Origin: Bacteroidales bacterium
GTDB lineage: Bacteria; Bacteroidota; Bacteroidia; Bacteroidales; UBA4417
Length of the DNA stretch: 64,000 nucleotides
NCBI GenBank assembly: GCA_030654075.1
Contig: JAURYB010000172.1
Location: forward strand, 3,285 to 67,284
Direction of reading: 5' to 3'
Below are positions 2-19,090 of the stretch, one piece after another. Within the stretch, counting starts at the first letter, position 1. Each line of letters starts with the position of its first letter. The notes under the pieces are model-generated. The model was not told the origin of the DNA, searched no databases, and saw only the letters and a list, made by a program, of their open reading frames with translations. The translations under genes and the position numbers were made by a program.

Positions 2-376
2 CTAAAAAATCACCAGGATAAGTTTAATCAGGAGAGCGGTAATCAAGGTTATGGCTGAAACAATCATTATAAAAAGCCCGAATTTACCAACATTCCCTTC
101 CGAATCACGGGCTATGTAACCTGTAATTACACCAACAACAGCAAAGATGATTAATAGTGTTGCTGCAATTGTTGACCCGGAAATAAGACTAAGGACTACT
201 ATTCCTGGCAATCCAACAAGGGCAATAAGTCCGACCGTGAGACAGCCTTTGGCTTGTATGAAATCGAAGAGTACCGAGAAAAATTTGATCAGAAAATATA
301 GGATAAGCACACTGAAAAGCAGGATGGGAATAAGTACCCAGGGGCTTGCATCACCTATCCGAATGGCAGTTTCCAT
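2..376 (-). CDS. small integral membrane protein, function unknown
   Basis: 124-aa ORF, ATG at 376, TAG stop at 2-4. Almost entirely hydrophobic stretches (LIPILLFSVLILYFLIKFF, LIALVGLPGIVVLSLISG, LLIIFAVVGVITGYI, LFIMIVSAITLITALLIKLILVIF), about 4 TM segments. Confidence 0.5.
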   Translation of the reverse strand: METAIRIGDASPWVLIPILLFSVLILYFLIKFFSVLFDFIQAKGCLTVGLIALVGLPGIVVLSLISGSTIAATLLIIFAVVGVITGYIARDSEGNVGKFGLFIMIVSAITLITALLIKLILVIF

Positions 377-451: not shown

Positions 452-1882
452 TCATTTAACAATAGCCCTTATCATTTCTTTGAACATCTGTAAATGGATT
501 GGCAACAAAAGGTACCAGTACAACCTTCCGCTCAAACCATGAGGCATGAATGTTGCAGTCTGGTAAAGGTAGTATCCATCGGTTTTTTTAACGATCCTGA
601 ATTCGAGCCATGCCTCGCCAGGGACTTTCATTTCGGCGAACAATAACAATCGCATTTTATCCCTGTCGGCAATCAGTACCCGCCAGAAATCCAACGAATC
701 GCCCGGATTCAGGTCAGATGCGCTCCGCCTTCCTCTCCTTAGTCCAACGCCTCCAACCATTTTATCTATCAGGCCTCTTACTTTCCAGATCCAATCCGCA
801 TAATACCAGCCTGTATCTCCACCAATTGAAAAAACTTTGTTCAACACACGTAGCGGATCGCCTTCGATACGAGAAATCCGCCTGTCGTGCATCACTCCGT
901 AAGTCGGGACTTCCAGCCGCTGAAATAACTGCCCTGGTTTTCTGAAAGAAACAGCGTCAGTCCAGCTCGACTGAACTGTATCCAGGTTAATTCTCTCCAA
1001 CGCCCTTTTGCAGGCTTCCTTATACGTTAGCGGAATGATTCCCAATATATCTTTAAGCCTCGTATCCTTGCAAACTACTTCTACTTTCATGCTGTCAACC
1101 AGGTTAACTGCCAGGTAATACGAGGTAGAAGTTACGAAGTAAAGCCAGTATGAAGAAATCCTGGGACTTATAAACGGTACTACAAATATGTGCCGTTTCA
1201 ATCCCCTGACTTCAGCATATTTTAGCATCATTTGTTTATATGAAAGTATCTCTGCTCCACCTATATCAAACGTTTGATCGTACGTAGCCGGATTAAGCAT
1301 ACATCCTAAGAGGTATTTCGGAACATTTCCCACAGCAATCGGCTGGCAAAGCGTTTTTACCCAAGTCGGGGCAACGATCACCGGCATTTTTTCCATCAGG
1401 TCCCTTATAATCTCGAATGAAGCGCTTCCGCTTCCTACAATGATTCCGGCCCGGAGAACAGTGACATGTTTTTCGGATTTCTGCAGAATATCTTCGACAT
1501 TCCTCCTGGATTGCAAATGCCTGGAAAGCTTTTTTGAATTGGAAATCCCACTCAGGTAGATAATTTGCCGGCAATTTGTGTTTTTAATAAATTCAGCGAA
1601 GTTACCGGCAGACAATGCTTCTTCATTCATGAACTCCGAAATAGAAGTTGACATGGAATGTATCAGGTAGAATGCTACATCAATATCCAATGTATACAAT
1701 GACGCAGGAACTGGTTTCAGAAGATCGGCTTCAATTCCACGTATTCCTTCCATCGATTGTTCGGAAGTCATTAAGCGTTCCAGGTTTCTGACCAGGCAAA
1801 TAACTTCATGACCTTCTTCCCGCAATTGTTGCAACAACCTTTTTCCAATGTAACCCGTACTACCGGTAAGCAATATTTTCAT
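452..1882 (-). CDS. NAD(P)-binding SDR/NmrA-like oxidoreductase with extra C-terminal domain (DUF2867-like, from memory)
   Basis: 476 aa. N-terminal Rossmann motif MKILLTGSTGYIGKRL (TGxxGxxG) typical of extended/atypical SDRs. The roughly 150-aa C-terminal extension needs an HMM search to name. Confidence 0.7.
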   Translation of the reverse strand: MKILLTGSTGYIGKRLLQQLREEGHEVICLVRNLERLMTSEQSMEGIRGIEADLLKPVPASLYTLDIDVAFYLIHSMSTSISEFMNEEALSAGNFAEFIKNTNCRQIIYLSGISNSKKLSRHLQSRRNVEDILQKSEKHVTVLRAGIIVGSGSASFEIIRDLMEKMPVIVAPTWVKTLCQPIAVGNVPKYLLGCMLNPATYDQTFDIGGAEILSYKQMMLKYAEVRGLKRHIFVVPFISPRISSYWLYFVTSTSYYLAVNLVDSMKVEVVCKDTRLKDILGIIPLTYKEACKRALERINLDTVQSSWTDAVSFRKPGQLFQRLEVPTYGVMHDRRISRIEGDPLRVLNKVFSIGGDTGWYYADWIWKVRGLIDKMVGGVGLRRGRRSASDLNPGDSLDFWRVLIADRDKMRLLLFAEMKVPGEAWLEFRIVKKTDGYYLYQTATFMPHGLSGRLYWYLLLPIHLQMFKEMIRAIVK

Positions 1883-1959: not shown

Positions 1960-3462
1960 CTAATATAACTCTTTGTGGCATTCCGAACAGAACTTAGTTT
2001 TCCACTTCTCTTTTATCTGGGTTGGATGTTCAAACGGAAGTGTCGAGTTAATATATGCATTGGAAATATTTCCGGTAGGACCTTGTGCAATAATAGTGTG
2101 ACAGGTTTCGCAATTTCTTGAAATGGTTTCCCCTTTTGCCGTCTTATGCCTGTCGGAGTGGCATCGGAAACAACCTTCCGATTCCAAATGCCCAATGTGA
2201 TTGGGGTATTGACTTGCATCAGCCCTCATATAGGGAAATGCATTCAGGTTGTATTCTGCCTGGACAGCTGCAATCGCCTTCATAATACGTTGTTCCTCCG
2301 ATTTCATCACTTCCGGATGTTCGTCCTTGTAGTATTTAATAATGGTTTCGCTTATCTCACGCATGGCAATCTCTTTATCCTGAAAAGGTAGTTTTAATGC
2401 CTCCATGGCTGCTTCCTTGAAATAAGGCAGATTTTTTGAAATCAGGCCTGTAACGAACGCATTATCAAGATAATCGGGCGCGGATTTAAAGAGATGGGAT
2501 GCGCGGTTGTGACAATCCATGCAATCCATTGTGCGTACCTCCAGTTTATCAAGTGTTTTCTTGTCAAGTGAATTTTCTTCATCCTCGAAAATCTTGACTT
2601 CTCCGGTTTTAAGGTTTGTAAGCTTTACCCATGGTATGCTCTCCCGGTTGCGTGTATCGGAAATATACTCAATCCGGAAATTTTTATTGATATGCCAGTG
2701 TATACCTTCCGAATTACCCATTGATTTGAATTCCGGGCCTATTTTCATGACAAGGGACAGGTTCCATTCGGTGTTGGCTGAATCAGCAAGGTATGAACGT
2801 TGCACACGCAGTTTCCTGGAATAAAATTTTTCGGGCCAGTGGCATCGTTCGCAGGTTTCGCGTTCCGGCCGCATGCTTTGAATAGGAGTGGGGACAGGCC
2901 TTGGGTATTTTTTGAAAAGGGTAGAGTATACCTGGTATAGTCCCGACAGTTTTGATTTAACATACCAGTCGGCACCTTGCCCAACATGACATTCAACACA
3001 GGTAACCCTGGCATGCGACGAATGCTGATACGTTACGTACTCCGGTTCTTCCACCTGGTGACAAAGCTTACCGCAGAACTCATTTGATTCGGTATACTGA
3101 TAAGCCCTGTAACTTCCCATAGCTGAAGCAACAAGGAAAAGTGTGGTGATCAGGAAAATTTTAACCAAGGTTGCCCGATCCATTCTTTGGTTAAGATCGA
3201 ATACCGGCCAGGATTCGTTACGTAGCTGCGCCGCTTTTCTTTTACGGATATTAATAACAACTCCAACCGGAATCAGAATTAATCCCAAAACTAAAAATGC
3301 CGGTAATACGATATAAATGTAGAGTCCCAGGGAAGTGCTGGTTTGTGTTGAAATAACCGAATAAAGATAAAGCACCAGGATTAAAATCAAGCTATTGGCT
3401 GTAACAATAAAGCCCGTTAGGCTTAGCCAGTTGTAAAATGCTTTGATATTTTTATCAGCCAC
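1960..3462 (-). CDS. membrane-anchored multihaem cytochrome c, NapC/NirT-like, ImcH-like architecture (7 haem motifs)
   Basis: 500 aa, GTG start. Two N-terminal hydrophobic helices. Six CxxCH motifs (CVECH, CERCH, CMDCH, CFRCH, CETCH, CSECH) plus CGKLCH (CX3CH) in the NapC-like position just after the membrane anchor. Confidence 0.8.
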   Translation of the reverse strand: MADKNIKAFYNWLSLTGFIVTANSLILILVLYLYSVISTQTSTSLGLYIYIVLPAFLVLGLILIPVGVVINIRKRKAAQLRNESWPVFDLNQRMDRATLVKIFLITTLFLVASAMGSYRAYQYTESNEFCGKLCHQVEEPEYVTYQHSSHARVTCVECHVGQGADWYVKSKLSGLYQVYSTLFKKYPRPVPTPIQSMRPERETCERCHWPEKFYSRKLRVQRSYLADSANTEWNLSLVMKIGPEFKSMGNSEGIHWHINKNFRIEYISDTRNRESIPWVKLTNLKTGEVKIFEDEENSLDKKTLDKLEVRTMDCMDCHNRASHLFKSAPDYLDNAFVTGLISKNLPYFKEAAMEALKLPFQDKEIAMREISETIIKYYKDEHPEVMKSEEQRIMKAIAAVQAEYNLNAFPYMRADASQYPNHIGHLESEGCFRCHSDRHKTAKGETISRNCETCHTIIAQGPTGNISNAYINSTLPFEHPTQIKEKWKTKFCSECHKELY

Positions 3463-3905: not shown

Positions 3906-3945
3906 GAAAAAGCAAAAGCCACTTTTGGGGGAAGTGGCTTTTGCT
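3906..3945 (-). terminator. rho-independent terminator after the 5-gene cytochrome operon
   Basis: 14-bp perfect stem AGCAAAAGCCACTT / AAGTGGCTTTTGCT (3911-3924 / 3932-3945), 7-nt loop. On the minus strand it is followed by a T-rich tract (GCTTTTGCTTTTTCC). Confidence 0.7.
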
Positions 3946-4005
3946 TAAAAATATGTTTTTTAACAAGCTCAAATCTATGTTAAGCAAGGAAAAATTAGTC
4001 TATGC

Positions 4006-4908
4006 TTATGCTTTATTGCTTTCTTCAGGAGGTATTTTTGAAGATTTATTGATCATAACCAATTGTACCACTGCATACACATAATGTCCCCAAACACCCA
4101 GAAGCATTACGATAAGTGTTATAATCATCCAGAGTGGCGCAATGGGCGTCCACAATTCCCGCGAAGGACGATCCGGACTAATCAGGTGTTTATGCAATCC
4201 CCAGTTTTTATCAGATGAGCCTTGAACCGTGCCGAAAATATCATTTTCCTCAATAGAGGCAACAACAGTCAGATTTCCGGTTGAATCACCAATAATGTCG
4301 CGGGGAAATTCAGCTGTACCAATACCGGTTGAATCAAGAGATATTTCAGCAATTTTAAGCATGCTGAACATTTTCGGGACTGATATAATTACATCAACCG
4401 CTCCGATTGATACTTCAGTGCCATCGCTGTTAAGCTGAGTTCCTTCAACTTTCACATACCTGATGGAGTCTTCTTCATAAAATGAAACTACCAGTTTTGC
4501 CGGTTTAAGGCCAAATTCACCTTCTGAAGCTTCGTATTTGTCATTGCCATCATACATCGCTTTAAATGAAAGCATCTGCTGATCGTTGCGAAGGAATGTG
4601 TTACGTGCCGGGATTTTGAGAACCGCAGTTCCATGAACATCAGTTTTTACCTCGCCAATCTTCAGATCTCCATCTTTCTCAACAGAGTAAAAAATAACCG
4701 GCGCATTTACCAGGTTAGTACTTCCATCGTCGTGTTTAACACTAACAACACTTTTTAACTGTATGCTGTCGTCAGAAGTACTGACACAGGCAAATCTTAA
4801 TACTGTGACAGCCGGGCTGGTGGTATCAGCATTATTCCGGGCAAATCCCTGCATCATTCCTGCCAGGAATAAGATGACAAGTATGATTCCTGTTTTTATC
4901 CTTTTCAT
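4006..4908 (-). CDS. signal-peptide protein with beta-rich (Ig-like?) ectodomain and C-terminal TM anchor; last gene of the cytochrome operon
   Basis: 300 aa. N-terminal signal (GIILVILFLAGMMQGFA), long beta-strand-like body, C-terminal helix LWMIITLIVMLLGVWGHYVYAVVQLVMI. 47 bp downstream of the NrfD-like gene, same strand. Confidence 0.55.
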   Translation of the reverse strand: MKRIKTGIILVILFLAGMMQGFARNNADTTSPAVTVLRFACVSTSDDSIQLKSVVSVKHDDGSTNLVNAPVIFYSVEKDGDLKIGEVKTDVHGTAVLKIPARNTFLRNDQQMLSFKAMYDGNDKYEASEGEFGLKPAKLVVSFYEEDSIRYVKVEGTQLNSDGTEVSIGAVDVIISVPKMFSMLKIAEISLDSTGIGTAEFPRDIIGDSTGNLTVVASIEENDIFGTVQGSSDKNWGLHKHLISPDRPSRELWTPIAPLWMIITLIVMLLGVWGHYVYAVVQLVMINKSSKIPPEESNKA

Positions 4909-4955
4909 AAAAAAATCTTTTTGTCCTGTTTACTAATTAACTTATTGTAAATCTG

Positions 4956-6281
4956 TTACCTCAGATAAATGTCACCCGCTTCTTTAGGTTCCTCCTTAAG
5001 ATCAGAAACCTGAACAATGGGTATCATTTTTGAAGCCAGGGTGAAAAGCAGACAGAAGAGTGCAACACCACCTGCTGTAAGCGACCATTCAACCCATGTG
5101 GCTGAATAATGTGCCCATGCATCACGTGACTCCTGGATAGGAAGATAAGGTGATTCGAGTGTTGGCACTACAATAAGGTAGCGGTTCAGCCATAACGCAA
5201 TAATAACAATGAATGCTGCTATGGTAATGTTATTGATTGTGCGCAGTTTCTTAAAACCCACAACAATCAACGGAACCAGAACACCGATGTAATTGGAAAG
5301 GATAAACAAAGAGTAATAATCCTTGAACAGGATGGCTATAAGTTGTTCGTCATTTTTTTCAGAACCATACCATTTTGTGAGGTATTCGCTGAAGGTAAAG
5401 TAACCAAAGAAGGCAGCAAGTACCAGCATGATAACTCCAACATTCACGAAGTGTTTTAATGTAATATGTTCTTCCAGATGGTACACTTTTCGGAAAAAAT
5501 ACATAGCCACAATAAGTACGCCGGTACCGGAATATACAGCAGCAATAACGAAATACGGGCCGAAGATGGTGCTATGCCAGCCTGGCTGTAAGGTTACACT
5601 GAAAATCCATGCGAGTACGGAGTATACTATAATTGCAATGGCAATAACCATTCCTGCCATAATATCCGTTGATTTTTTCAACCGTAATTGCTGTTCGGGT
5701 GTTCCTGTATAACCAATGGCAAGAATTTTGTACATTTTTTTCTTCCAATTCGGAACTTTCAGTTCGTCAAAATCGCGGAGTTTAGCCAAATCGCGTAAAA
5801 GTGCCAGGTACAGGAAAAGTATACATCCGAATATATCGGTTGATATAGCAATAACGTCCCAGGTAATTGGCGACTGAATACGCCCGAAGAGAATAAGATT
5901 CGGAAGACGGTCGAGGCGGCCGATACACATCATGATAAAGCCCGGGCCTATTAAAAGTGAGATTATGGTGATAAACTCAGCCATACGGATTATAGGTTTC
6001 CTCCATTCAGCATGAAAAAGATGCAGTGCTCCCGAAATAAGTGCTCCCGCGTAACTGATACCCATAAAAAAGATGAAGTTCACGATGTAAACACCCCATA
6101 CAACGTTGTCGCGCATACCGGTAACAATATGCCCGCGCGAAACCTGCCAGTAAAGGGCGAAAAAACCTAACAGAACAACACCAACAAGAAATGTTATCCA
6201 CAGTTTACCCAGTGTTCCGGTGTGCTCAATCTGAGGCGCAAATTCCCGGAGTAAAATTTTCGAACTAGCCGTATCGCTCAT
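4956..6281 (-). CDS. NrfD/PsrC-family polytopic membrane quinone-interacting subunit
   Basis: 441 aa with about 10 hydrophobic helices. The ATG overlaps the stop of the upstream ferredoxin gene (TAATG). Gene order FeS-NrfD is typical of NrfCD/PsrBC/Hmc modules. Confidence 0.8.
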   Translation of the reverse strand: MSDTASSKILLREFAPQIEHTGTLGKLWITFLVGVVLLGFFALYWQVSRGHIVTGMRDNVVWGVYIVNFIFFMGISYAGALISGALHLFHAEWRKPIIRMAEFITIISLLIGPGFIMMCIGRLDRLPNLILFGRIQSPITWDVIAISTDIFGCILFLYLALLRDLAKLRDFDELKVPNWKKKMYKILAIGYTGTPEQQLRLKKSTDIMAGMVIAIAIIVYSVLAWIFSVTLQPGWHSTIFGPYFVIAAVYSGTGVLIVAMYFFRKVYHLEEHITLKHFVNVGVIMLVLAAFFGYFTFSEYLTKWYGSEKNDEQLIAILFKDYYSLFILSNYIGVLVPLIVVGFKKLRTINNITIAAFIVIIALWLNRYLIVVPTLESPYLPIQESRDAWAHYSATWVEWSLTAGGVALFCLLFTLASKMIPIVQVSDLKEEPKEAGDIYLR

Positions 6282-7243
6282 TACAGGGTCTCCTTATTTT
6301 TAAGATTTTTTACATAGGGGGTATTTTCAAATCTCTTGGTAACTTCCTCATCCAGGCCATCAAGTCCGCGTTCGAACGGGAATTGCCTGTCGACAGGTGG
6401 GAGATAATATACATTCGGACGGGTTCCAAGGTTATCAAGGTATTTGTAGCCGGAACGGTCGCGGATCAGTTCACTGAATTTAAAAGTTTCGGTTCCGTTG
6501 GTTACAACATCTTCGTCAATGTCGCCAAAATAGATAACTCCCATCGGGCAAGCGGATGCACAATACGGTAGCTTCCCTTCGCGGGCGAGGTCAGGACAGA
6601 AATCGCATTTGGAAACCGTTCCTTCAACACCCGGAACACTTTTCTCAGGTGAATAAGGCTGATCCGACTCATAAGCTTCTTCTGCTTTCCATGAAAATAC
6701 ACGTGTTGAATACGGGCAGCCTGTCATACAGAACTTACAACCGATACAGCGTTCGTTATCAATAAGCACAATACCATCGCTGCGCTTGTAGGTTGCACCA
6801 ACAGGACAAACACTCACACACTGGGGGTTATCGCAATGGTAGCATGGTTTTGGAAACCAGTAAGGTGCCGTTTTCTCTGAATCCTGCATAAGGTAAACTT
6901 TCATAAACTCCTGGTCTTTAGGAAGGTTATGTCCTTTTTGGCATTCCTCAACACACTTACGGGCATTTTTACATTTAGCCAGGTCAATTACCATAACAAA
7001 CTTACGGCCAGGAATACCTTCGTGGGATTCAACGCGGCCAACCGGCGCAAGTGTGAGGAAATTTTTATCTACTTCCATCACTTCACCTGAAGTGGTAAGT
7101 ACTTTGATCTTTTCACCTGATTCGCCGGAATTTTTACCAGTTGCTATCAAAGCTCCTGTTGCAACAGTACCGGCACCAGCCAACAAACCCAGTTTCAGGA
7201 AATTTCTCCGCGAGTTGTTGTCATCTTTCTTTTTATTTTCCAT
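6281..7243 (-). CDS. Tat-exported 4Fe-4S multi-cluster ferredoxin (NrfC/HybA/DmsB-like)
   Basis: 320 aa. Twin-arginine signal SRRNFLKLGLLAGAG. Cys clusters CKNARKCVEEC, CYHCDNPQCVSVCP, CIGCKFCMTGCP, CDFC...CASACP. Confidence 0.85.
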   Translation of the reverse strand: MENKKKDDNNSRRNFLKLGLLAGAGTVATGALIATGKNSGESGEKIKVLTTSGEVMEVDKNFLTLAPVGRVESHEGIPGRKFVMVIDLAKCKNARKCVEECQKGHNLPKDQEFMKVYLMQDSEKTAPYWFPKPCYHCDNPQCVSVCPVGATYKRSDGIVLIDNERCIGCKFCMTGCPYSTRVFSWKAEEAYESDQPYSPEKSVPGVEGTVSKCDFCPDLAREGKLPYCASACPMGVIYFGDIDEDVVTNGTETFKFSELIRDRSGYKYLDNLGTRPNVYYLPPVDRQFPFERGLDGLDEEVTKRFENTPYVKNLKNKETL

Positions 7244-7322
7244 GGTAAGCCATTTTAATGTTAAGTGATGAGGAAGTTTCGATCAATTCCGAACAGTAAG
7301 CTTTTCAGCTACCTGTCAGATT

Positions 7323-7940
7323 TCAGTGTGATTCGTGAAAGCCATTGATCATGCTCTTAAAATTACTTACAAAAGTTGCTCCTATGGTGCAGAAATATAT
7401 GTGAACAAACATAAAAAAGGATACAAAAAAACCAATAATGACATGGATAAAGTCATTGACTTTTATTCCGCTACCACTAAAAAATTTGGTTAAAACCACT
7501 TCGGGGTACAATAAAGCCCATCCGGTAATTATAACAATAGGCACAAGCACAAACATGGCAATTACATAGGTAAACTGTTGTAAAGGATTGAATTTGCTTT
7601 CTTTTGTAACAGGGAACGGAGGTCTTTCGTGTTTGAAAATACCAAATGTATAATACGTAAACTGTTTTATCAGCCTGGCAAATAAGCCTTTAAATGATAA
7701 TTTGTAATATTTTCCGTTAGGAGTGATAAAAGTTCCGATCAGAAATATCATATAATTAGCTGTGAGTATCATTCCGCTGATATTATGCATGGTAACAGCA
7801 ATATCGAACCTGATAAACGGGTTAGCCGGATTTGTATATTGCATACTTACACCGCTGATGATCAGGAGGATGATAAGAATGGCATTTAAGGCATGCCAGA
7901 GCCTGATCCACATGGGATATAGATATATTTTTTGTGACAT
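7323..7940 (-). CDS. dihaem b-type cytochrome membrane subunit (HydC/FdnI/PhsC-like, Ni_hydr_CYTB type)
   Basis: 205 aa, 4 TM helices with conserved His (WHALN, MHNISG, IHVIIG, VHIYF). The ATG overlaps the stop of the upstream haem-c gene (TAATG). Confidence 0.7.
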   Translation of the reverse strand: MSQKIYLYPMWIRLWHALNAILIILLIISGVSMQYTNPANPFIRFDIAVTMHNISGMILTANYMIFLIGTFITPNGKYYKLSFKGLFARLIKQFTYYTFGIFKHERPPFPVTKESKFNPLQQFTYVIAMFVLVPIVIITGWALLYPEVVLTKFFSGSGIKVNDFIHVIIGFFVSFFMFVHIYFCTIGATFVSNFKSMINGFHESH

Positions 7941-8923
7941 TATTTCTTACGTTTTATAATTCTGAGTGTTGCATGAATTGCTATACCAAATGCTACGCAT
8001 CCGAACATGATTAAACTTATCAATCCAAGGTAATAATTACGGTTGGCACCAATAACATATCCTTCGTTCATGATAACTCCGTTATAAAATCCGGCTTTGC
8101 TGCGTTCTTCCTGCACTTTGTATTTGTAAAGTGAAGCCATAAGGATTGAGTTGGTTGAATGACACTCAACGCACCTTCTTACTGCTTTTGCTTTTGGCTG
8201 AATATTATGTGCTACCAGGATTGAATCGTTGGTTCGCGCATGGCACTCGATACAACGGACATTTTTGAAATGCAGCGCCTGGTTAGGCAACCAGTCATGT
8301 TTTTGGAGGATATTGGGATTCACTTTATCCGTGAGCATCTGGTACTTGGTAATATCGGCGTGGCAATTCAGACAAATAGCGTTATCGTAAGCTACAATAT
8401 CTCTGATTTTTTCGTCCGAACGGGCGTTGATTTTATAGGTATGCGGATTATGACACATCCAGCAGTTAAAATCATCGCTGTGCTTTGTTGAATGCACACT
8501 CGACTGGAATTCAGTTTCAATATCTTCAAATTTAAATTTGGCATATGCTTCATCTCCGCCATGGCAGTCGATACAGGCATATTTCGATTCCATCCGCAAG
8601 CGTCCCGGGTGTGGGAAAGTATCATAGTCGGCAGAATGGCAATCTGTACATTTAAATGTTTTATGGTTTGATTCGTAAAATTCGGTACGGTTAATAATGG
8701 TTTCGAGGTACATTCTCTTGGTTACTTCGGTACCTGATTCCGGATTATTATATTTATACTTGGATTGCCCGTGACATTTCAGGCAATCTTCGTTGATTTT
8801 AATTGTTTCATCTTTGGGTTTGTTTTGGGCTTTTAATGTAATCGACATCATCGAAAAAAAGAAGAATGTCAAAATAAAAGCAACAGGAACTTTCCGGAAA
8901 TATGGAGTGAAAAGTGAAGTCAT
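7940..8923 (-). CDS. heptahaem cytochrome c with C-terminal membrane anchor
   Basis: 327 aa. Signal peptide. Seven CxxCH motifs (CLKCH, CTDCH, CIDCH, CWMCH, CLNCH, CIECH, CVECH). C-terminal helix LGLISLIMFGCVAFGIAIHATL. Confidence 0.85.
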   Translation of the reverse strand: MTSLFTPYFRKVPVAFILTFFFFSMMSITLKAQNKPKDETIKINEDCLKCHGQSKYKYNNPESGTEVTKRMYLETIINRTEFYESNHKTFKCTDCHSADYDTFPHPGRLRMESKYACIDCHGGDEAYAKFKFEDIETEFQSSVHSTKHSDDFNCWMCHNPHTYKINARSDEKIRDIVAYDNAICLNCHADITKYQMLTDKVNPNILQKHDWLPNQALHFKNVRCIECHARTNDSILVAHNIQPKAKAVRRCVECHSTNSILMASLYKYKVQEERSKAGFYNGVIMNEGYVIGANRNYYLGLISLIMFGCVAFGIAIHATLRIIKRKK

Positions 8924-8961: not shown

Positions 8962-9005
8962 CAAAAAAAATAAAGGGTGTTCTGATTTTATCCTGAACAC
9001 CCTTT
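8962..9005 (-). terminator. rho-independent terminator after the cytochrome c gene
   Basis: Stem AAAGGGTGTTC / GAACACCCTTT (8972-8982 / 8995-9005). On the minus strand it is followed by ATTTTTTTTGCC. Confidence 0.8.
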
Positions 9006-9019
9006 ATCTGGCAAACAAA

Positions 9020-9436
9020 TTACTTTTTCATAGTACGGATATAGCCAATAACAGCCCATCTGTCAGCAACGTCTAAAATTTTCTTTTCGAAGTTAGGCAT
9101 TTCGTCGCGGCCGATAAATGACATGTAATAAAGTTCTCCATCAGTTTTAGCCTGGAATGCTGCTTTTGAAAAATCACCTGTTAAGGTTTTGAGGTTCGCG
9201 GCTTTTGGGCCATCACCTAGACCTTTTGCTCCATGGCATGATTTGCAATGCTTGTTGAAGTTTTCTTTTCCAATCGTGTTGATTGATGCGTCACCAGCTT
9301 TTACAGTACTTTTCATGTTTTTGTAAGTTGCCGGGATTGTCCAGGGACCGCCAGCTTTTTGTGCTATAGCCATATTGGCTGTTACAAAAGCAATAGCGGT
9401 GCAAATAATTGCGATAAGTTTAATTGAATTTCTCAT
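9020..9436 (-). CDS. class I monohaem cytochrome c (periplasmic)
   Basis: 139 aa from ATG 9436. Signal peptide MRNSIKLIAIICTAIAFVTANMAIAQ, single CKSCHG, distal Met region DEMPNF. The track ORF start at 9517 would overlap the upstream gene and adds a non-signal N-terminus. Confidence 0.8.
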   Translation of the reverse strand: MRNSIKLIAIICTAIAFVTANMAIAQKAGGPWTIPATYKNMKSTVKAGDASINTIGKENFNKHCKSCHGAKGLGDGPKAANLKTLTGDFSKAAFQAKTDGELYYMSFIGRDEMPNFEKKILDVADRWAVIGYIRTMKK

Positions 9437-9504: not shown

Positions 9505-10443
9505 TTAGAAATTCCACAGACGGGTCAGATTGAATCCAATCATAATGCCTTTATTGAAAAAATCATGATTATTCCACATAATATCTTCCTGAGGCAGAAT
9601 TCCCTGTGCTGATGCTAAATAGATCTGAAATGCATGGGTGCTTGTTGATATCTCGACACCAATAGAGATGTTAGGCTTATCATAAATGATAGTTGTTTTA
9701 TCAGAGTCTTTCTTGTAATCTTTAATTGCTGAGATATCCAAAGGGAAATCACCGGCAACAATCAAAGAACCTTGCGGTGAGAATTTATACCTTCCTGCAA
9801 ATGACAAGGAAACTCTGTCGTGATCATAAACTGAATCAACGCAGTTGTAATGTGTGAATGCTCCACTAGCTTGTAACGATAGGTGATCATTAAACCTGCG
9901 CGATACTATCAACTCGGTAAAGGATGATATTCTGTTCGAAAATTTATAGCCGGCTGATCCTTCATTCTGATCCCAGGTAGCTTTGTCTCTACCATCAACC
10001 CCTATAACTTCGTGCAAAACTATAGTTACAGGAATGCTGTTTGAACGGGTTTGTTCAATAATTCTGTACTTAAGCTGTAAATCCTGTAATCTATTTATTT
10101 TAGTGGTTCCAACCCCTACAGTAAGATTGTCAAGAATACTGTAATTTAAACCTACTCGGATGTTAGAGGATCCCCAGATTCCAAAAAAGTCTTTAGCGCC
10201 ATCCGTATATCCAAACCGATGCTGAAGAATGAATTCCAGCGTTTTTGCTGGTGAAACGGTTGTGGTTGTTGCATCAAACAATAATCCGCTTTCGAAAGCG
10301 GGACGTACCGGACGTTCTTTCGGTGTTTCCTGAACAGTAGTATCCTGAGTGGCTTCTTCCTGTGCAAAGGTGGTTGAATTAAATATCAGCAATGTTAAGA
10401 CCATCAAAGCGCTGAAGCGGAGTATCTTATATATGTTTTTCAT
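9505..10443 (-). CDS. predicted outer-membrane beta-barrel protein (DUF5777-like from memory), paralog of 15243-16157
   Basis: 312 aa. Signal peptide ending FAQ, alternating amphipathic strands, C-terminal GFNLTRLWNF ending in Phe. Clear similarity to the 304-aa ORF (LEFILQHRFG/LQFLVEHNFG, IRVGLNY/VRLGLEY, HAFQIYL/HVFQFRL). Confidence 0.6.
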   Translation of the reverse strand: MKNIYKILRFSALMVLTLLIFNSTTFAQEEATQDTTVQETPKERPVRPAFESGLLFDATTTTVSPAKTLEFILQHRFGYTDGAKDFFGIWGSSNIRVGLNYSILDNLTVGVGTTKINRLQDLQLKYRIIEQTRSNSIPVTIVLHEVIGVDGRDKATWDQNEGSAGYKFSNRISSFTELIVSRRFNDHLSLQASGAFTHYNCVDSVYDHDRVSLSFAGRYKFSPQGSLIVAGDFPLDISAIKDYKKDSDKTTIIYDKPNISIGVEISTSTHAFQIYLASAQGILPQEDIMWNNHDFFNKGIMIGFNLTRLWNF

Positions 10444-10851: not shown

Positions 10852-11001
10852 TGGTTAATTATTTGTTGGTTGTTTTAGATTTTGAGACAGGCTTTTTGTT
10901 ATAAATTTAACAAAGCTACTGTGGTTATTTGATTCGTACAAAGGAATACTTTTATCCTGAAATAGTGCATTAATTAAATATGATTGTTTGACACTATTAT
11001 T

Positions 11002-11045
11002 TTGATACTTATCAACCGATATATTGATATATGTCATTATCTTTG
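11002..11045 (+). promoter_or_regulatory. perfect FNR box TTGATACTTATCAA plus -7 box TATCTTTG upstream of the Crp/Fnr gene
   Basis: TTGAT-N4-ATCAA at 11002-11015. TAnnTTTG-type -7 box at 11038-11045. Palindrome centre lies 29.5 bp before the box, the same spacing as at 13718-13762. Confidence 0.6.
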
Positions 11046-11129
11046 TACGCGAATTGAAGGGTAAAGATTCTACTGTTAAAACCAGATTGGATACTATATT
11101 TTCCTTCATTTAATATAAAAATTAGATCT

Positions 11130-11828
11130 GTGAATCAATATACTCAATATATAAAAGGATGCAGTTCATGCAAAGACAAAGCTGAAATATTCAGTTGTTT
11201 GTGCCAGACCGAGCTAGACCAGATTGATGAAAAACGTATTGAAGTGCATTTTAAAGCGGGTGAACTTATCTTTAAGCAAGGTACTCCCAATATGCATTTC
11301 CTGTGTTTAACCCAAGGTAAAGTTAAAACGTATATTGAAGGCTATAACGATAAAAATCTTATCCTGGGTATTGTTAAACCTGTCGAATATATTCTTGGAC
11401 CTGGAATTTATGCTGACCAGATGCATCACTTTTCGGCTATGGCTATCGAGGATTCAGTCGCATGCCTTGTTGACCTGGTTACGTTTAAGTCTCTCATCCG
11501 GAATAATCCTGATTTTGCGGAAGATTTTCTAAAAAAAATCAGCCTGCAATCAATTTATAATTACGAACTTTTCATCAGCCTTACACAAAAGCAAATGCCA
11601 GGGCGAATTGCCGATGTATTGCTTTACCTGAAAGACAAAGTTTACGAATCCAATCCATTCCGTACTTCGCTTTCGAGGCAGGATTTAGCTGATATGTCGG
11701 GTATGTCGAAGGAAAGTGCCATTCGTATCCTAAGGGAGTTTAAAGACGAAGGTATTATTCAGGTGAATGGCAACGATTTCGAGATATTAGATACTGAACA
11801 TCTTAGTAAGATCAGTCAAACAGGATAG
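11130..11828 (+). CDS. Crp/Fnr-family transcription regulator with N-terminal Cys cluster (FNR-like)
   Basis: 232 aa, GTG start. cNMP-binding-type beta-roll, C-terminal HTH (SRQDLADMSGMSKESAIRILREF). N-terminal C11-x2-C14-x8-C23-x-C25 (GCSSCKDKAEIFSCLC). Confidence 0.85.
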   Translation: MNQYTQYIKGCSSCKDKAEIFSCLCQTELDQIDEKRIEVHFKAGELIFKQGTPNMHFLCLTQGKVKTYIEGYNDKNLILGIVKPVEYILGPGIYADQMHHFSAMAIEDSVACLVDLVTFKSLIRNNPDFAEDFLKKISLQSIYNYELFISLTQKQMPGRIADVLLYLKDKVYESNPFRTSLSRQDLADMSGMSKESAIRILREFKDEGIIQVNGNDFEILDTEHLSKISQTG

Positions 11829-13856: not shown

Positions 13857-14240
13857 ATGAAAACACGAATAATTAGTGCATTGGCCGGATTGATACTTTT
13901 AAGCATTTATCTAACTTCCTGCAAGCATGAACCGGAACTCCCGCCAGGCACACCCATAGTTTGTTTCGACCAGGATGTTATGGGCATTATTAATTCGAAT
14001 TGCAATGTACCCGGTTGCCACGGTGATGGTGAAGGGCCTTCTCTATCTACTTTCGAAGATGTTTCCAGCTATGTCACCGCAGGCAAACCAATGCAAAGCG
14101 AGCTTCATAAAGTAATTACGGCACACTCGAACCTGGAGGGGTTAATGCCTCCCAAACCAAAATCAGCACTTTCCAGTTCACAGATTGATATTATAAGCAT
14201 CTGGATATTGCAAGGCGCGACTCATACCACCTGTCCCTAA
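13857..14240 (+). CDS. small PSCyt1-like lipoprotein with CX4CH motif
   Basis: 127 aa. Lipobox YLTSC, motif NCNVPGCHG (C-x4-CH), tail LMPPKPKSALSSSQIDIISIWILQGA matching the PSCyt1-type ending. Confidence 0.65.
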   Translation: MKTRIISALAGLILLSIYLTSCKHEPELPPGTPIVCFDQDVMGIINSNCNVPGCHGDGEGPSLSTFEDVSSYVTAGKPMQSELHKVITAHSNLEGLMPPKPKSALSSSQIDIISIWILQGATHTTCP

Positions 14241-14356
14241 ACTCATTGCGATGGTTTTCAAGCGGGATCTACTGTTCCATATACAAATATTTAACAGTAT
14301 TTTGAACAATTGATATATAAATGTATTTTAATAGAATGCTAATCAAAAAATCTTCA

Positions 14357-14743
14357 ATGAAAACAAAAATAAAAGTATTCCTTGCATCTGTATTGGCACT
14401 TACACTTGCGATCAGCGGTTGTTATTATGACAATGAAGAAGACTTATACCTGGGAAGCAGCGCCTGTGATACAACAAATGTAACCTACCTCAATACTACT
14501 TCAGGTGAATTAGCTATTGAGAAAATTTTTGAACATAATTGTAATTCATGCCATAGTGGAAGTACTCCATCCGGGAATATTAAGACTGACAATTATGAGG
14601 CTGTAAAAGCCAATATTATCCGGATCAGAGGAGCAATTAACCACCAATCAGGCTTTCAGGCAATGCCTCAAGGTGGCAGCCTGTCATCCTGCGACCTGAC
14701 GAAAATTGATATCTGGATCAGAAAAGGGATGCTGAACAATTAA
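14357..14743 (+). CDS. small haem-c lipoprotein, PSCyt1-like
   Basis: 128 aa from ATG 14357 (MKTKIKVFLASVLALTLAISGC lipobox). CNSCH motif, tail AMPQGGSLSSCDLTKIDIWIRKG. The track start at 14321 adds 12 non-signal residues. Confidence 0.65.
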   Translation: MKTKIKVFLASVLALTLAISGCYYDNEEDLYLGSSACDTTNVTYLNTTSGELAIEKIFEHNCNSCHSGSTPSGNIKTDNYEAVKANIIRIRGAINHQSGFQAMPQGGSLSSCDLTKIDIWIRKGMLNN

Positions 14744-14766
14744 CCATTTAGATAAAATTAAAGGGT

Positions 14767-15204
14767 ATGAATAAAAAACTTAAAATCGGGCTTATAATAC
14801 TGGCAATCGGACTTGTAGCTGCAGCCCTTGTTTGGAAATTTTATGTAAACAAACCTCATGATGATATAGAAAAAGCAACCGCGGCTTATTCTGTTTCGAC
14901 CGAAGAAATTTGGAATAAGTACAATACCGACCGGAGAACAGCCGATTCGTTGTACAATGACCAGGTGATTGAAGTTACCGGCAGCCTGAGCCGTATCGAT
15001 AAAAATGACACATTGGTATCGGCCATATTTGTAATGGCGGCTGACTCAATGTTTGGTGATAAAACCATTGCCTGTCAGATGTATAAAAAGCACAATGAAG
15101 AAGCGGGCACATTAGTGGTTGGCTCAAAAGTTAAAATTAAGGGTGTTTGTATCGGATTTGATGATACCGATATTAAATTTAATAAATGTTCAATAGTCAA
15201 ATAG
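14767..15204 (+). CDS. N-terminally anchored OB-fold protein (tRNA_anti-like family, from memory)
   Basis: 145 aa. TM helix IGLIILAIGLVAAALVW, then a pattern typical of Bacteroidota tRNA_anti-like/OB proteins (YNDQVIEVTGSL...GSKVKIKGVCIG). Confidence 0.5.
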   Translation: MNKKLKIGLIILAIGLVAAALVWKFYVNKPHDDIEKATAAYSVSTEEIWNKYNTDRRTADSLYNDQVIEVTGSLSRIDKNDTLVSAIFVMAADSMFGDKTIACQMYKKHNEEAGTLVVGSKVKIKGVCIGFDDTDIKFNKCSIVK

Positions 15205-15242
15205 TTACTTTGTTTTTCAGGTTAAAGGATAAATAAAACAGT

Positions 15243-18511: not shown

Positions 18512-19090
18512 CTAACCCAATCGTTTGGAAATTAAATTCCAATCAACCAGTTGCCAGAAAGCGTTAACGTAATCCGGACGACGGTTCTGGAAATCCAGGT
18601 AATATGCATGTTCCCAAACGTCGCAGGTTAAAATTGGTTTTAATCCATCGCGCATTGGATTTGCCGCATTTCCGGTAGCAACAATGGACAGCTTACCATC
18701 AGTATTTTGTACAAGCCATGCCCAGCCTGATCCAAACTGGTTTATGGCTGCCTCGTTGAATTTGGTTTTAAACGTGTCGAACGAACCAAAATCGCGGTTG
18801 ATCATGTCAAGCAGGTTACCTGATGGAGTTGTGCCACGTTGTGCTGAAAATCCTTCCCAATAGAAAGTGTGATTCCAAACCTGGGCAGCATTGTTGAAAA
18901 TGCCACCTTCAGCTTTCAGAATAATTTGTTCGAGTGAAGAATTCTCGAAATCAGTACCGGGTACAAGACCATTAAGTTTTGTAACATAGGTCTGATGGTG
19001 TTTGCCATAATGAAATTCGATGGTACGTGCGCTGATTACTGGTTCTAAAGCATCAGCTGCGTAAGGTAAAGCAGGAAGTTGAAATGTCAT
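18512..19090 (-). CDS. sodB: superoxide dismutase, Fe-type
   Basis: 192 aa. LPALPYAADALEPVISARTIEFHYGKHHQTYV, FNNAAQVWNHTFYW (Gln in the Fe-type position), CDVWEHAYYLD. Confidence 0.93.
   Translation of the reverse strand: MTFQLPALPYAADALEPVISARTIEFHYGKHHQTYVTKLNGLVPGTDFENSSLEQIILKAEGGIFNNAAQVWNHTFYWEGFSAQRGTTPSGNLLDMINRDFGSFDTFKTKFNEAAINQFGSGWAWLVQNTDGKLSIVATGNAANPMRDGLKPILTCDVWEHAYYLDFQNRRPDYVNAFWQLVDWNLISKRLG

Follow-up and report, generated by a model that had tools for sequence, protein, structure and literature searches.

The window, by which we mean the whole 64,000-nucleotide stretch of Bacteroidales DNA that was analysed, carries five open reading frames at 4006-8923, all on the minus strand. 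These encode a heptahaem cytochrome c, a dihaem cytochrome b, a four-cluster ferredoxin (the FeS protein), an NrfD-family subunit and a 300-residue protein designated X300. Together with the neighbouring features that bear on their function, they are as follows.

1960-3462, minus strand: ImcH-like inner-membrane cytochrome; separate transcription unit, 544 bp downstream of the cluster
3906-3946, minus strand: intrinsic terminator-like hairpin at the operon end; -23.7 kcal/mol, z = -4.9 against shuffles, followed by a short U-run
4006-4908, minus strand: X300; 300 aa, signal peptide, two beta-sandwiches, C-terminal membrane helix
4956-6281, minus strand: NrfD-family quinol-interacting subunit; 441 aa, 10 predicted membrane helices, start overlapping the FeS stop (TAATG)
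6281-7243, minus strand: Tat-exported four-cluster ferredoxin, NrfC/DsrO/PsrB-like; 320 aa, SRRNFLK Tat motif, 4Fe-4S dicluster domains
7323-7940, minus strand: dihaem cytochrome b, CbcB/HydC/PhsC type; 205 aa, start overlapping the upstream stop (TAATG)
7940-8923, minus strand: heptahaem cytochrome c, CbcA-like; 327 aa, N-terminal signal peptide, seven CxxCH motifs, C-terminal hydrophobic helix
8963-9009, minus strand: internal hairpin and U-run between the monohaem cytochrome c and heptahaem genes; -21.2 kcal/mol, z -4.5
9020-9436, minus strand: class I monohaem cytochrome c; CxxCH and invariant Met140, conserved start at Met28 of the listed open reading frame
9505-10443, minus strand: DUF5777 outer-membrane beta-barrel; about 12 strands, C-terminal Phe, Pfam 221.8 bits
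10474-10851, minus strand: small lipoprotein, LIC11213 family-like; invariant lipobox Cys22, Pro-rich linker, invariant CxxCH
11002-11015, no strand assigned: FNR/CRP-type palindrome TTGATACTTATCAA; perfect, in the divergent promoter region
11130-11828, plus strand: Crp/Fnr-family regulator, divergently transcribed; conserved Cys11, Cys14 and Cys112

An eight-gene cluster in freshwater Bacteroidales

When open reading frames, motifs and overlaps were re-read, gene content and the coupling inside each gene pair proved to be as given in a preliminary description of this DNA. Specifically, the seven CxxCH motifs and the Tat signal are present, the two TAATG overlaps lie at 7942-7938 (haem-c/cytochrome b) and 6283-6279 (FeS/NrfD), and the strong terminator placed at the operon end corresponds to the hairpin at 3906-3946. 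Overlaps of stop and start codons are confined to the two pairs; from one pair to the next, the cytochrome b and FeS genes are 79 nt apart, and a further 47 nt lie between NrfD and X300. Also upheld was the statement that no catalytic subunit accompanies these genes, as neither a molybdopterin-type nor any other such subunit is encoded in or near the operon. The proposal of a five-gene operon holds insofar as the genes are real and lie together, but they are the distal five genes of a conserved cluster of eight (10851-4006) that has an FNR box and whose other members encode the haem lipoprotein, the DUF5777 barrel and the monohaem cytochrome c.

The same five genes occur in the same order in approximately 60 of 85 related loci from Bacteroidales MAGs, with invariant haem, His and Cys ligands, and they are therefore genuine genes rather than chance open reading frames. 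DUF5777, the haem lipoprotein and a monohaem cytochrome c are always part of the cluster in related loci, and this larger cluster is widely conserved in freshwater Bacteroidales. Metagenomes matching the sequence come from anoxic-prone lake, freshwater and wetland samples, while none of the RNA runs searched contains it. The internal hairpin at 8963-9009 could act as a terminator or attenuator; its position is kept in 41 of 64 related loci, with differing stem sequences, and because a conserved hairpin thus precedes the haem-c gene, a five-gene sub-operon is still possible. The palindrome at 11002-11015 is the only perfect FNR-box match in the 64-kb window.

Two quinone-interacting membrane modules

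As the preliminary description had it, two different quinone-interacting membrane modules share the operon. The first consists of the heptahaem c and the cytochrome b. The latter matches Pfam Ni_hydr_CYTB (E 9.5e-24, 84.6 bits) and, at a score under the cut-off of 204, the NCBIfam PhsC model (180.9 bits). Its four membrane helices carry His16, His52, His166 and His180, which, like His317 in the C-terminal membrane helix of the heptahaem c, are invariant in 68-69 orthologues; the heptahaem c has seven further invariant His that are candidate distal ligands. A close system is CbcBA (Cbc5; GSU0593-0594) of Geobacter sulfurreducens, a low-potential menaquinol oxidoreductase for extracellular electron transfer, in which CbcA is a 7-haem c whose C-terminal membrane domain supplies a His, and CbcB, which usually bears a thiosulfate-reductase-like annotation, is a dihaem b with four helices. 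Homologues of CbcBA have been reported in Bacteroidetes, including Prolixibacter, Marinilabiliales and Labilibaculum.

Judged from CbcBA as described, the window pair fits this architecture: common to both are a seven-haem periplasmic c with a His-bearing C-terminal membrane anchor, a separate four-helix dihaem b carrying the same 'thiosulfate reductase-like' annotation, and a c gene directly 5' of the b gene, a likeness to GSU0593/GSU0594 at the level of architecture. The general direction of the earlier comparison, toward Geobacter Cbc-type complexes, was therefore sound, whereas its reading of the pair as an unfused CbcL was not, since there are seven haems rather than nine, the c is separate and C-terminally anchored, and the b is of the four-helix type. 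Several differences from CbcBA are nonetheless evident. Firstly, four membrane His are invariant in the window cytochrome b, while three are reported for CbcB. Secondly, a Crp/Fnr regulator and FNR box stand in place of sigma-54/BccR control. Additionally, the window pair, unlike CbcBA, shares its cluster with NrfCD-X300 and outer-membrane genes.

The second module comprises the FeS protein, the NrfD subunit and, as argued below, X300. The FeS protein has 15 invariant Cys, and the missing second Cys of motif I (C-x5-C-x3-C) suggests one 3Fe-4S and three 4Fe-4S clusters; its best NCBIfam match is DsrO (168 bits), and scores against the NrfC and NrfD models fall far under their cut-offs. The NrfD subunit matches Pfam NrfD (E 1.3e-32), and its best solved relatives are four ActC chains, aligned over nearly their full length at 154-187 bits (6f0k_C 187 bits, 6btm_C 183 bits). 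By comparison, DsrP scored 85 bits, QrcD 34 bits, and PsrC gave no match. A neighbour-joining tree placed the subunit in a sister clade of ActC; it does not belong to the Hmc, Dsr, Psr or Nrf types.

ACIII (ActABCDEF; PDB 6f0k, 6btm, 6lod, 8k9e), to which ActC belongs, is a quinol:cytochrome c oxidoreductase, and thus reduces cytochrome c with no need of a catalytic subunit. Similarities to it include the 10-helix topology of NrfD, the retention of most proton-channel residues (12 of 19, including the Arg395 gate), an FeS partner with probably the same one 3Fe-4S and three 4Fe-4S clusters, the absence of a catalytic subunit, a monohaem cytochrome c as likely acceptor, and a small family-specific membrane subunit, ActD in ACIII and X300 here. 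However, identity between NrfD and ActC is approximately 30%, against 54-67% among ActC chains across different phyla, and only two of four quinol-site residues are kept. At this site Cys takes the place of His139 and Ile that of Asp253, both changes being fixed in the clade; quinol chemistry may therefore differ from that of ActC, or the site may lie elsewhere. Furthermore, the window FeS protein is without the molybdopterin-like B1 domain and has 320 aa compared with about 1000 aa, the window has no ActF, pentahaem ActA or ActD, and X300 combines one helix with two periplasmic beta-sandwiches where ActD has two helices and a cytoplasmic domain.

The preliminary description saw no counterpart for the fifth gene, and X300 indeed has no Pfam or NCBIfam match; it is no add-on, however, but the most faithful partner of FeS-NrfD. 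It follows FeS-NrfD in 85 of 85 related loci, FeS-NrfD-X300 triplets are duplicated or triplicated in two loci (L072, L080), and one natural NrfD-X300 fusion exists (P0248). The family is large (789 clusters at 50% identity), with two Ig/macroglobulin-like beta-sandwiches (residues 35-134 and 137-234), a generic fold that gives no functional clue, and a near-invariant juxtamembrane and membrane helix (residues 236-289; WGL.KHL.SPDRP.RELWTP.APLWMIITL..ML.GVWGHY). Given its constant position, co-duplication, fusion and near-invariant helix, we propose X300 as a putative third, previously undescribed subunit of the FeS-NrfD module. Since FeS-NrfD-X300 also occurs without the bc pair (loci L040, L042, L072, L080 and L084), the two are separable modules and not one Hmc-like complex.

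Outer-membrane genes and further cytochromes

In the periplasm, electrons are likely to be accepted by the monohaem cytochrome c. The operon also contains DUF5777 and the haem lipoprotein, spaced by tens of bases, and where the monohaem gene follows X300, the gene immediately before the bc genes is DUF5777, at a distance of 18-142 nt (median 22). An AF2 model of the DUF5777 protein, moderately confident at pLDDT 66, predicts a 12-strand outer-membrane barrel, and its top Foldseek matches are FapF, OmpG, KdgM and Tsx. As modelled, such a barrel is too narrow to hold a haem domain as MtrB holds MtrA, a point against the extracellular route proposed below. The ImcH-like protein, judged against the ImcH architecture described in the literature, has three N-terminal membrane helices, a NapC/NirT-like region and seven haem motifs (one CxxxCH, six CxxCH).

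Relatives add a further cytochrome, c0, an OcwA/NrfA-like lipoprotein encoded behind the same FNR box and bearing a collagen-like Gly-X-Y tether. Its best solved relative is the Thermincola surface reductase OcwA (E 1e-11); its profile also matches NrfA chains (1oah, E 2.7e-6; 8bcx; 2j7a) and octahaem nitrite reductase, and one copy (L001) exceeds the Pfam Cytochrom_C552 cut-off at 28.9 bits. It has six invariant CxxCH motifs and no CxxCK, and its extra His (five invariant and one near-invariant) would allow bis-His ligation of every haem. No OcwA-like c0 gene lies within the 64-kb window; because relatives carry one behind the same FNR box, this genome probably encodes a terminal redox partner at another site, by extrapolation from these close relatives.

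Porin-cytochrome conduits (MtrCAB, Geobacter Pcc/Ext) and the Thermincola OcwA pathway offer a parallel in their co-encoded inner-membrane quinol dehydrogenases, periplasmic cytochrome, barrel and lipoprotein multihaem cytochrome, the c0 of relatives being most similar to OcwA among solved structures. The parallel does not extend to detail: MtrB has 26 strands against about 12 in DUF5777, the periplasmic carrier is monohaem here and decahaem in the conduit, and the window genes have no sequence relation to MtrA, MtrB or MtrC.

Proposed electron route and competing explanations

Taken together, these data lead us to propose, with about an even chance of being right, that the cluster encodes two tandem, independent inner-membrane menaquinol:periplasmic-cytochrome oxidoreductase modules that feed an outer-membrane or extracellular electron route switched on by FNR under anoxia. 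It is probable that each module takes electrons from the quinone pool and hands them to periplasmic cytochromes. In module 1 (7323-8923), the dihaem b would oxidise quinol and reduce the membrane-anchored heptahaem c, whose C-terminal helix, with its invariant His, would pack against the b subunit. In module 2 (4006-7243), the cofactor-less NrfD would oxidise quinol and pass electrons to the Tat-exported ferredoxin, with X300 serving as a structural or coupling subunit, its membrane helix on NrfD as ActD sits on ActC and its Ig-like domains next to the ferredoxin on the periplasmic side. The acceptor for both modules would be the monohaem cytochrome c encoded alongside them, which would in turn deliver electrons, at the outer membrane, to the haem lipoprotein and the DUF5777 barrel and, in relatives, onward to the OcwA-like lipoprotein cytochrome and extracellular Fe(III), Mn(IV) or humic substances. 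Control would lie with the neighbouring regulator of the FNR type, which would activate the system when conditions are anoxic.

Two alternatives appear improbable, though each has evidence in its favour. According to one, the cluster encodes a respiratory reductase comparable to MccACD/SirACD or NrfABCD, whose substrate is soluble or periplasmic (nitrite, hydroxylamine, sulfite, polysulfide or similar) and in which an NrfA-family c0 encoded elsewhere in the regulon is catalytic and FeS-NrfD-X300 and the bc pair are its quinol dehydrogenases. The NrfA, octahaem nitrite reductase and Cytochrom_C552 matches of c0, the service of NrfC/NrfD-type modules to such enzymes in Nrf, Mcc and Sir systems, and FNR-type control all fit, but c0 lacks CxxCK, has His enough for bis-His ligation throughout, is a tethered lipoprotein and best matches an extracellular reductase; moreover, a soluble substrate would not need a barrel and haem lipoprotein in strict synteny, and the NrfC and NrfD scores are low. 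The other, to which we give similarly little credence, sees a minimal ACIII-like quinol:cytochrome c oxidoreductase feeding ordinary enzymes (cbb3 or caa3 oxidase, peroxidase, N-oxide reductases) through the monohaem c, with outer-membrane genes kept for another purpose. It would account for the affinity of NrfD to ActC, the constant co-encoding of a class I monohaem cytochrome c and the lack of a catalytic subunit, which ACIII shares, and cbb3 and aa3 oxidases do occur in related Prolixibacteraceae MAGs. Against it, oxidase or reductase genes are in synteny in 0 of 85 loci, the outer-membrane genes are as tightly bound to the operon as described above, including where DUF5777 adjoins the bc genes, and FNR control points to anoxia.

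Less probable still is a single Hmc/Dsr-like transmembrane complex of all five proteins, with b and NrfD cooperating, for example in a quinone-cycling redox loop. The five genes lie together between two hairpins and are co-linear in some 60 loci, DsrMKJOP and Hmc are known complexes that, like the window, join NrfD with a cytochrome b, and in these systems and Qrc, as here, a Tat-exported FeS protein goes together with an NrfD-like subunit and a multihaem c, no molybdopterin enzyme being present. Yet FeS-NrfD-X300 is found, and multiplied, on its own, overlaps occur within pairs only, and the cytochrome b is of HydC/PhsC rather than NarI/HdrE type. The HdrD-like cytoplasmic subunit (DsrK/HmcF), QrcB and the 16-haem cytochrome of Hmc are lacking, so that the likeness to Hmc once suggested falls away, and all NCBIfam scores lie under cut-off (DsrO 168/200, DsrP 85/350, QrcC 114/400, QrcD 34/570, HmcB 78/420). 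Just as doubtful is inward flow, in which the outer-membrane components would take up electrons from a partner cell, reduced humics or extracellular Fe(II) and the two modules would then reduce quinone, much as in iron oxidation of the Cyc2/Mto type where an ACIII-like complex runs in reverse. In its favour, bc quinone modules of the CbcL/MtoC type are known from metal reducers and oxidisers alike, the source habitats are iron-rich and humic-rich lakes, and the monohaem lipoprotein and small barrel would loosely recall an unfused Cyc2. Against it, FNR-type regulation and a gene content that is anaerobic, fermentative and respiratory speak for anoxia, the cluster has no linked genes for autotrophy or oxidases, and ImcH-like and CbcBA-like proteins are characterised as quinol oxidases. 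Genes for a flavodiiron protein and for a protein with a BatA domain (aerotolerance regulator N-terminal) also occur in the window.

The cluster thus most likely serves anaerobically induced quinol oxidation that feeds an extracellular electron-transfer chain, and by this route it may export electrons to iron, manganese or humic substances.

Organization and extent of the cluster

A five-gene operon on the minus strand had been proposed in the preliminary description of this DNA, and all five open reading frames (ORFs) are present with exactly the boundaries assigned to them.

The five minus-strand genes, listed 5' to 3'
Heptahaem cytochrome c, 7940-8923, minus strand: 327 aa, seven CxxCH motifs, N-terminal signal peptide, C-terminal hydrophobic helix
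Cytochrome b, 7323-7940, minus strand: 205 aa, Pfam Ni_hydr_CYTB (E 9.5e-24)
FeS protein, 6281-7243, minus strand: 320 aa, SRRNFLK twin-arginine motif, 4Fe-4S dicluster domains
NrfD-like protein, 4956-6281, minus strand: 441 aa, Pfam NrfD (E 1.3e-32)
X300, 4006-4908, minus strand: 300 aa, no Pfam or NCBIfam match

Both junctions reported as TAATG do read TAATG, and the terminator was likewise borne out, its hairpin (3906-3946) folding at -23.7 kcal/mol with 0 shuffles folding as well. The extent of the unit required revision. When the ORFs of all related loci were labelled with the window proteins, gene order proved near-constant, running (Crp/Fnr), (c0), haem lipoprotein, DUF5777, monohaem c, heptahaem c, cytochrome b, FeS, NrfD and X300, where c0 denotes an OcwA/NrfA-like lipoprotein cytochrome of the related loci; the genes that follow X300 in these loci are unrelated housekeeping genes (ribF-like, mnmG, ybeY). 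This constancy suggests that the functional unit in the window spans 10851-4006 and consists of eight genes with X300 as the last, so that the five genes of the proposed operon stand but do not make up the full unit.

The relationship of the five genes to those upstream is complicated by an additional structure.

Internal hairpin with U-run, 8963-9009, between the monohaem c and heptahaem c genes: -21.2 kcal/mol, z -4.5

A hairpin followed by a T-run occupies the equivalent site in 41 of 64 related loci, with stem sequences that differ, and this conservation of position suggests that the five genes may form a sub-operon or an attenuated distal part. In those loci where the monohaem gene instead follows X300, DUF5777 lies directly 5' of the heptahaem gene (gap 18-142 nt, median 22), an arrangement that argues for a single functional unit. 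A sigma-70 promoter scan, using a model ill-suited to Bacteroidota promoters, returned no more matches than the shuffled expectation. In a search of sequencing runs, no RNA run was found to contain window sequence and DNA runs shared at most 20% of its words; the metagenomes of the source organism are from lake and wetland. Sequence analysis is the basis of the whole account.

The bc pair and the FeS-NrfD-X300 module

The heptahaem cytochrome c and the cytochrome b, together the bc pair, display strict conservation of their candidate haem-binding residues. Across 69 sequences the seven CxxCH motifs of the c subunit are invariant, as are seven further His residues; a hydrophobic helix is located at residues 298-316, and His317, within the C-terminal helix, is invariant in 69/69. 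The b subunit has four predicted helices, and His16, His52, His166 and His180 are invariant in 68 orthologues; its best curated model is PhsC, the thiosulfate-reductase cytochrome b (181 bits, under the cut-off of 204). Searches of PDB sequences with either protein gave no informative matches. The pair had been likened to an unfused CbcL (Cbc1), which is described in the literature as one polypeptide with 9 haems and 6 helices that lacks sequence homology to CbcBA (Cbc5 of Geobacter). In CbcL, then, 9 CxxCH motifs are fused to 6 helices, whereas the window encodes two polypeptides with 7 haems and 1+4 helices. The count of haems, the count of helices and the split architecture all fit CbcBA instead, and on the published descriptions 'unfused CbcL' should become 'CbcBA-type'. 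Specifically, CbcA is reported in the CbcBA paper to be a seven-haem cytochrome whose C-terminal transmembrane domain acts as an anchor and supplies a His. Similarly, the window c subunit has seven haems, is anchored by a C-terminal membrane helix and carries a His in this membrane domain that would be available for b-haem ligation, while its partner is a four-helix, dihaem, 'thiosulfate reductase-like' protein with conserved haem His. One difference lies in regulation: CbcBA adjoins a sigma-54/BccR-type regulator, whereas the window has a Crp/Fnr gene and an FNR box. The bc pair thus appears to match the CbcBA type as published for GSU0593/GSU0594; CbcBA homologues in Bacteroidetes were noted in the same paper.

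The FeS protein, a putative Tat-exported ferredoxin, has 15 invariant Cys. In motif I the second Cys is missing, its place being taken by Ala94 in 96% of sequences, a pattern that points to three 4Fe-4S clusters and a single 3Fe-4S cluster. The protein is matched best by DsrO (168 bits, cut-off 200), PsrB and ArrB, with the C-terminal half of ActB, a subunit of alternative complex III (ACIII), at 62-66 bits; ActB differs in that it fuses a molybdopterin-like domain (B1) to its FeS domain (B2), whereas the 320-aa window protein consists of ferredoxin domains only. A separate observation concerns the distant locus L084, where an 86-aa ORF just upstream of the FeS gene (7321-7581) has its own twin-arginine-like signal and repeats the N-terminal LTPDGKLVEVDK segment of the FeS protein, resembling a partial duplication.

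Comparison of the NrfD-like protein with all PDB sequences matched only ACIII chains, namely four ActC chains at 154-187 bits and near full length; matches to ActF were weak, and PsrC was absent at E<0.01. Scores against curated models fall far under the cut-offs (DsrP 85/350 bits, QrcD 34/570 bits). Like ActC, the protein has ten predicted helices, and its identity to ActC is 30-31%, compared with 54-67% among ActC chains. Residues conserved in >95% of 521 ActC sequences (Calisto and Pereira, 2021, Table 2) were mapped by HMMER alignment: the window protein retains 12 of the 19 proposed channel residues, among them the Arg395 gate. Only 2/4 residues of the quinol site (His139, Ser164, Asp169, Asp253) are retained, Ser164 and Asp169, so that ActC and the window protein differ in half of this site; His139 is replaced by Cys119 and Asp253 by Ile226, both fixed in 82/84 orthologues. 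An NrfD phylogeny had been recommended in the preliminary description. In a neighbour-joining tree rooted on ActF, with ActC represented by Rhodothermus, Flavobacterium and two further ACIII structures (6lod, 8k9e), the X300-linked NrfD clade is sister to ActC; the small reference set makes this a placement rather than a full phylogeny. The cluster has no second NrfD (ActF), pentahaem ActA or ActD. Taken together, these results relate the FeS-NrfD module to group C of the NrfD family, which contains ACIII and Dsr, and place it outside both.

X300 is the least familiar of the five proteins. None of its 586 relatives in a 90%-clustered database has a functional name, and the 789 clusters matched in a 50%-identity library are nearly all 280-320 aa and nearly all unannotated. 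A scan of GTDB species genomes found 80 loci, of which all but two lie in MAGs that bear a Bacteroidales or Bacteroidota label (Lentimicrobiaceae, Prolixibacteraceae, Draconibacterium). The other two are labelled only 'bacterium' and Alphaproteobacteria, the latter probably mis-binned; as the scan used exact membrane-helix patterns, this taxonomic breadth is a lower bound. Carriers in the survey are almost only Bacteroidales MAGs of lakes, wetlands and digesters. Structure prediction, as had been advised, yielded an AlphaFold model from 31 homologues (mean pLDDT 80) comprising an N-terminal signal helix, beta-sandwiches at 35-134 and 137-234, a poorly ordered linker and a C-terminal membrane helix (256-289). 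Assignment of function from the fold was abandoned, as Foldseek matches were confined to generic domains of the Ig, macroglobulin and transglutaminase-C kinds; a profile search of the PDB returned nothing significant. The juxtamembrane and membrane stretch is near-invariant (WGL.KHL.SPDRP.RELWTP.APLWMIITL..ML.GVWGHY), and even distant members retain APLW ... W.HY.

Genomic context is more informative. X300 follows FeS-NrfD in 85/85 loci, the triplet occurs twofold in L072 and threefold in L080, and the trio is kept in the distant, higher-GC L084, where the bc pair is absent. In L083 (418-2640) a 740-aa protein, P0248, joins NrfD-like to X300-like sequence through read-through of the intergenic spacer, with consistent topology; because it derives from one 4.5-kb metagenomic contig, on which the fusion may be genuine or may reflect faulty assembly or sequencing, it is counted as weak support only. 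From these observations we conclude that X300 is probably a third subunit of the NrfCD module, a place for a gene in which the preliminary description had recognised no counterpart from the Hmc and Cbc-type complexes. The nearest analogy is ActD, described in the ACIII literature as a small family-specific membrane subunit that has a conserved polar residue in the membrane, touches ActB and packs against ActC at its first helix bundle; there is no sequence relationship between ActD and X300.

The preliminary description had called the operon Cbc/Hmc-like. Assembly of all five proteins into one Hmc-like complex seems most unlikely: FeS-NrfD-X300 is found without the bc pair in five loci (L040, L042, L072, L080 and L084), in one of which (L040) the cluster is otherwise unchanged and only 90 nt separate the monohaem and FeS genes, and start/stop overlaps occur inside each pair (c/b; FeS/NrfD) and not between pairs. 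NCBIfam scores are far under cut-offs (HmcB 78/420, QrcC 114/400, NrfC 107/378, TtrB 122/416), and no Hmc, Qrc, Nrf or Psr-Phs-Ttr partner subunit (HmcA/E/F, QrcA/B, NrfA/B, molybdopterin subunit) was found in the ORFs at 1-22600 or the ten largest elsewhere in the window. DsrMKJOP differs in that DsrM is NarI-type, whereas the window cytochrome b is HydC/PhsC-type, and a DsrK-like gene is absent. Membership of Hmc or Dsr was accordingly ruled out by HMM scores, cytochrome b family and the absent HdrD-like subunit. The bc pair and FeS-NrfD-X300 are therefore best regarded as two putative modules, not one complex.

The proposed lack of a catalytic subunit held among the same ORFs, which otherwise encode housekeeping and oxidative-stress functions. 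An Fe/Mn superoxide dismutase (18512-19090, minus strand), a flavodiiron-type protein (ODP beta-lactamase and flavodoxin; 48881-50098, minus strand) and a BatA-domain (aerotolerance regulator N-terminal) protein (53373-55439, minus strand) form an oxygen-defence set consistent with an anaerobe. In a 734-aa protein (33070-35274, minus strand), a class-V aminotransferase domain of NifS/cysteine-desulfurase-like type is joined to AIR-synthase-related domains, whose family includes SelD (selenophosphate synthetase).

Neighbouring genes and regulation

Upstream of the bc pair are encoded a small lipoprotein with an invariant CxxCH and a Pro-rich linker, a DUF5777 protein and a class I monohaem cytochrome c. 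The DUF5777 protein ends in Phe, and its model (12 strands, pLDDT 66) resembles the outer-membrane barrels FapF, OmpG, KdgM and Tsx in Foldseek; as modelled, a 12-strand barrel would be unable to enclose a haem domain. The barrel and haem lipoproteins are co-encoded in the loci, with the OcwA-like c0 known from relatives only. A second, paralogous cluster on the plus strand (13857-16157) encodes a cytochrome-c-like lipoprotein (13857-14240), a cytochrome c (14321-14743), an OB-fold tRNA_anti-like protein (14767-15204) and a DUF5777 barrel (15243-16157, 313 bits); the same four-gene set adjoins the main cluster in L058, L061, L062, L065, L068, L071 and L073, and DUF5777 barrels thus seem to pair with c-type cytochromes generally.

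Features flanking the cluster
FNR box, 11002-11015, divergent intergenic region: sole perfect TTGAT-N4-ATCAA in the 64-kb window, 0.33 expected
ImcH-like gene, 1960-3462, 544 bp downstream of X300: helices 19-37, 51-69 and 97-115, Cytochrom_NNT at 97-186

The Crp/Fnr gene beside the FNR box has conserved Cys11, Cys14 and Cys112. An 84-aa ORF (10855-11109, minus strand) takes up this divergent regulatory region, FNR box included, and is unlikely to be a true gene.

The ImcH-like protein has seven haem motifs, six CxxCH and one CxxxCH, each of them invariant across 26 sequences. With these motifs, three N-terminal helices and a NapC/NirT-like region around helix 3 and the first haems, its predicted architecture is that of ImcH. 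Further downstream are an NAD-binding/DUF2867 protein (452-1882, minus strand), whose position is kept in the closest relatives (L001 and others), and a 124-aa multi-helix membrane protein without a Pfam match (2-376, minus strand). Beyond the NAD-binding/DUF2867 gene, the closest relatives carry a small ORF, a further monohaem cytochrome c gene, a second gene of ImcH-like type and c0. There c0 lies about 7 kb beyond X300, a position that here would be outside the window, past its left edge; tblastn gave no c0 match in the window. This lipoprotein cytochrome, encoded in 52 related loci (e.g., L001 18058-19398, L045 2949-4043, L084 4675-5775), has six haem-binding CxxCH motifs, and its lipobox Cys is immediately followed by a collagen-like Gly-X-Y tether; in many relatives a perfect FNR palindrome lies ~95-200 bp upstream of the c0 gene.

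Functional readings and significance

With the ImcH-like gene, the bc pair and FeS-NrfD-X300, the locus holds three kinds of putative quinol dehydrogenase, which sit with a periplasmic cytochrome, a putative outer-membrane barrel and lipoprotein cytochromes under FNR-type control. On the best-supported reading, the cluster would be induced under anaerobic conditions and would carry electrons from menaquinol to an acceptor outside the cell. As has been proposed for Geobacter, the several points of entry at the inner membrane might be set to different potentials; for the steps from the periplasm outward, which we infer, a lipoprotein linker might be threaded through the barrel. A more specific proposal is put forward tentatively: FeS-NrfD-X300 may be a pared-down sister of ACIII that has its own Ig-domain subunit and represents a new class of quinol dehydrogenases with energy coupling. 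Together with the DUF5777 barrel and tethered lipoprotein cytochromes it would form a Bacteroidota-specific extracellular electron-transfer (EET) conduit, unrelated to Mtr, Pcc or Cyc2, in which a linker passes through the narrow 12-strand barrel and no haem domain is enclosed.

Other readings are possible. Among PDB entries, the c0 profile is closest to OcwA (E 1e-11), which serves Thermincola potens as terminal reductase at the cell surface, and NrfA comes next; that c0 is an NrfA-like enzyme of a system reducing a soluble substrate is considered unlikely. It is also rather improbable that the inner-membrane modules amount to a minimal quinol:cytochrome c oxidoreductase of ACIII-like type that supplies ordinary terminal enzymes. 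Electron uptake in the inward direction seems very improbable.

Literature searches found no mention of DUF5777 and no description of X300 or the cluster; one study reported a Prolixibacteraceae MAG with genes resembling ImcH and ExtA. In the searched literature, both the complete cluster and its FeS-NrfD-X300 module thus appear undescribed, and the bc pair would add to the CbcBA kind. Electrons enter many anaerobic respiratory chains through NrfD-family modules and bc-type quinol oxidases, and a strictly conserved, widespread NrfC-NrfD-X300 trio would both add a member to the ACIII/Dsr branch of the NrfD family and offer a small, tractable system for the study of coupling between quinol oxidation and ion translocation. 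Should the cluster be an EET pathway, it would assign a first function to DUF5777 and provide a genetic marker by which the respiration of metals or humics could be recognised in Lentimicrobiaceae and Prolixibacteraceae, families common in anoxic freshwater and bioelectrochemical reactors whose electron sinks are poorly understood. If the tentative proposal of an ACIII-sister dehydrogenase and a barrel-based conduit is true, abundant freshwater Bacteroidales would be unrecognised respirers of iron, manganese or humic substances.
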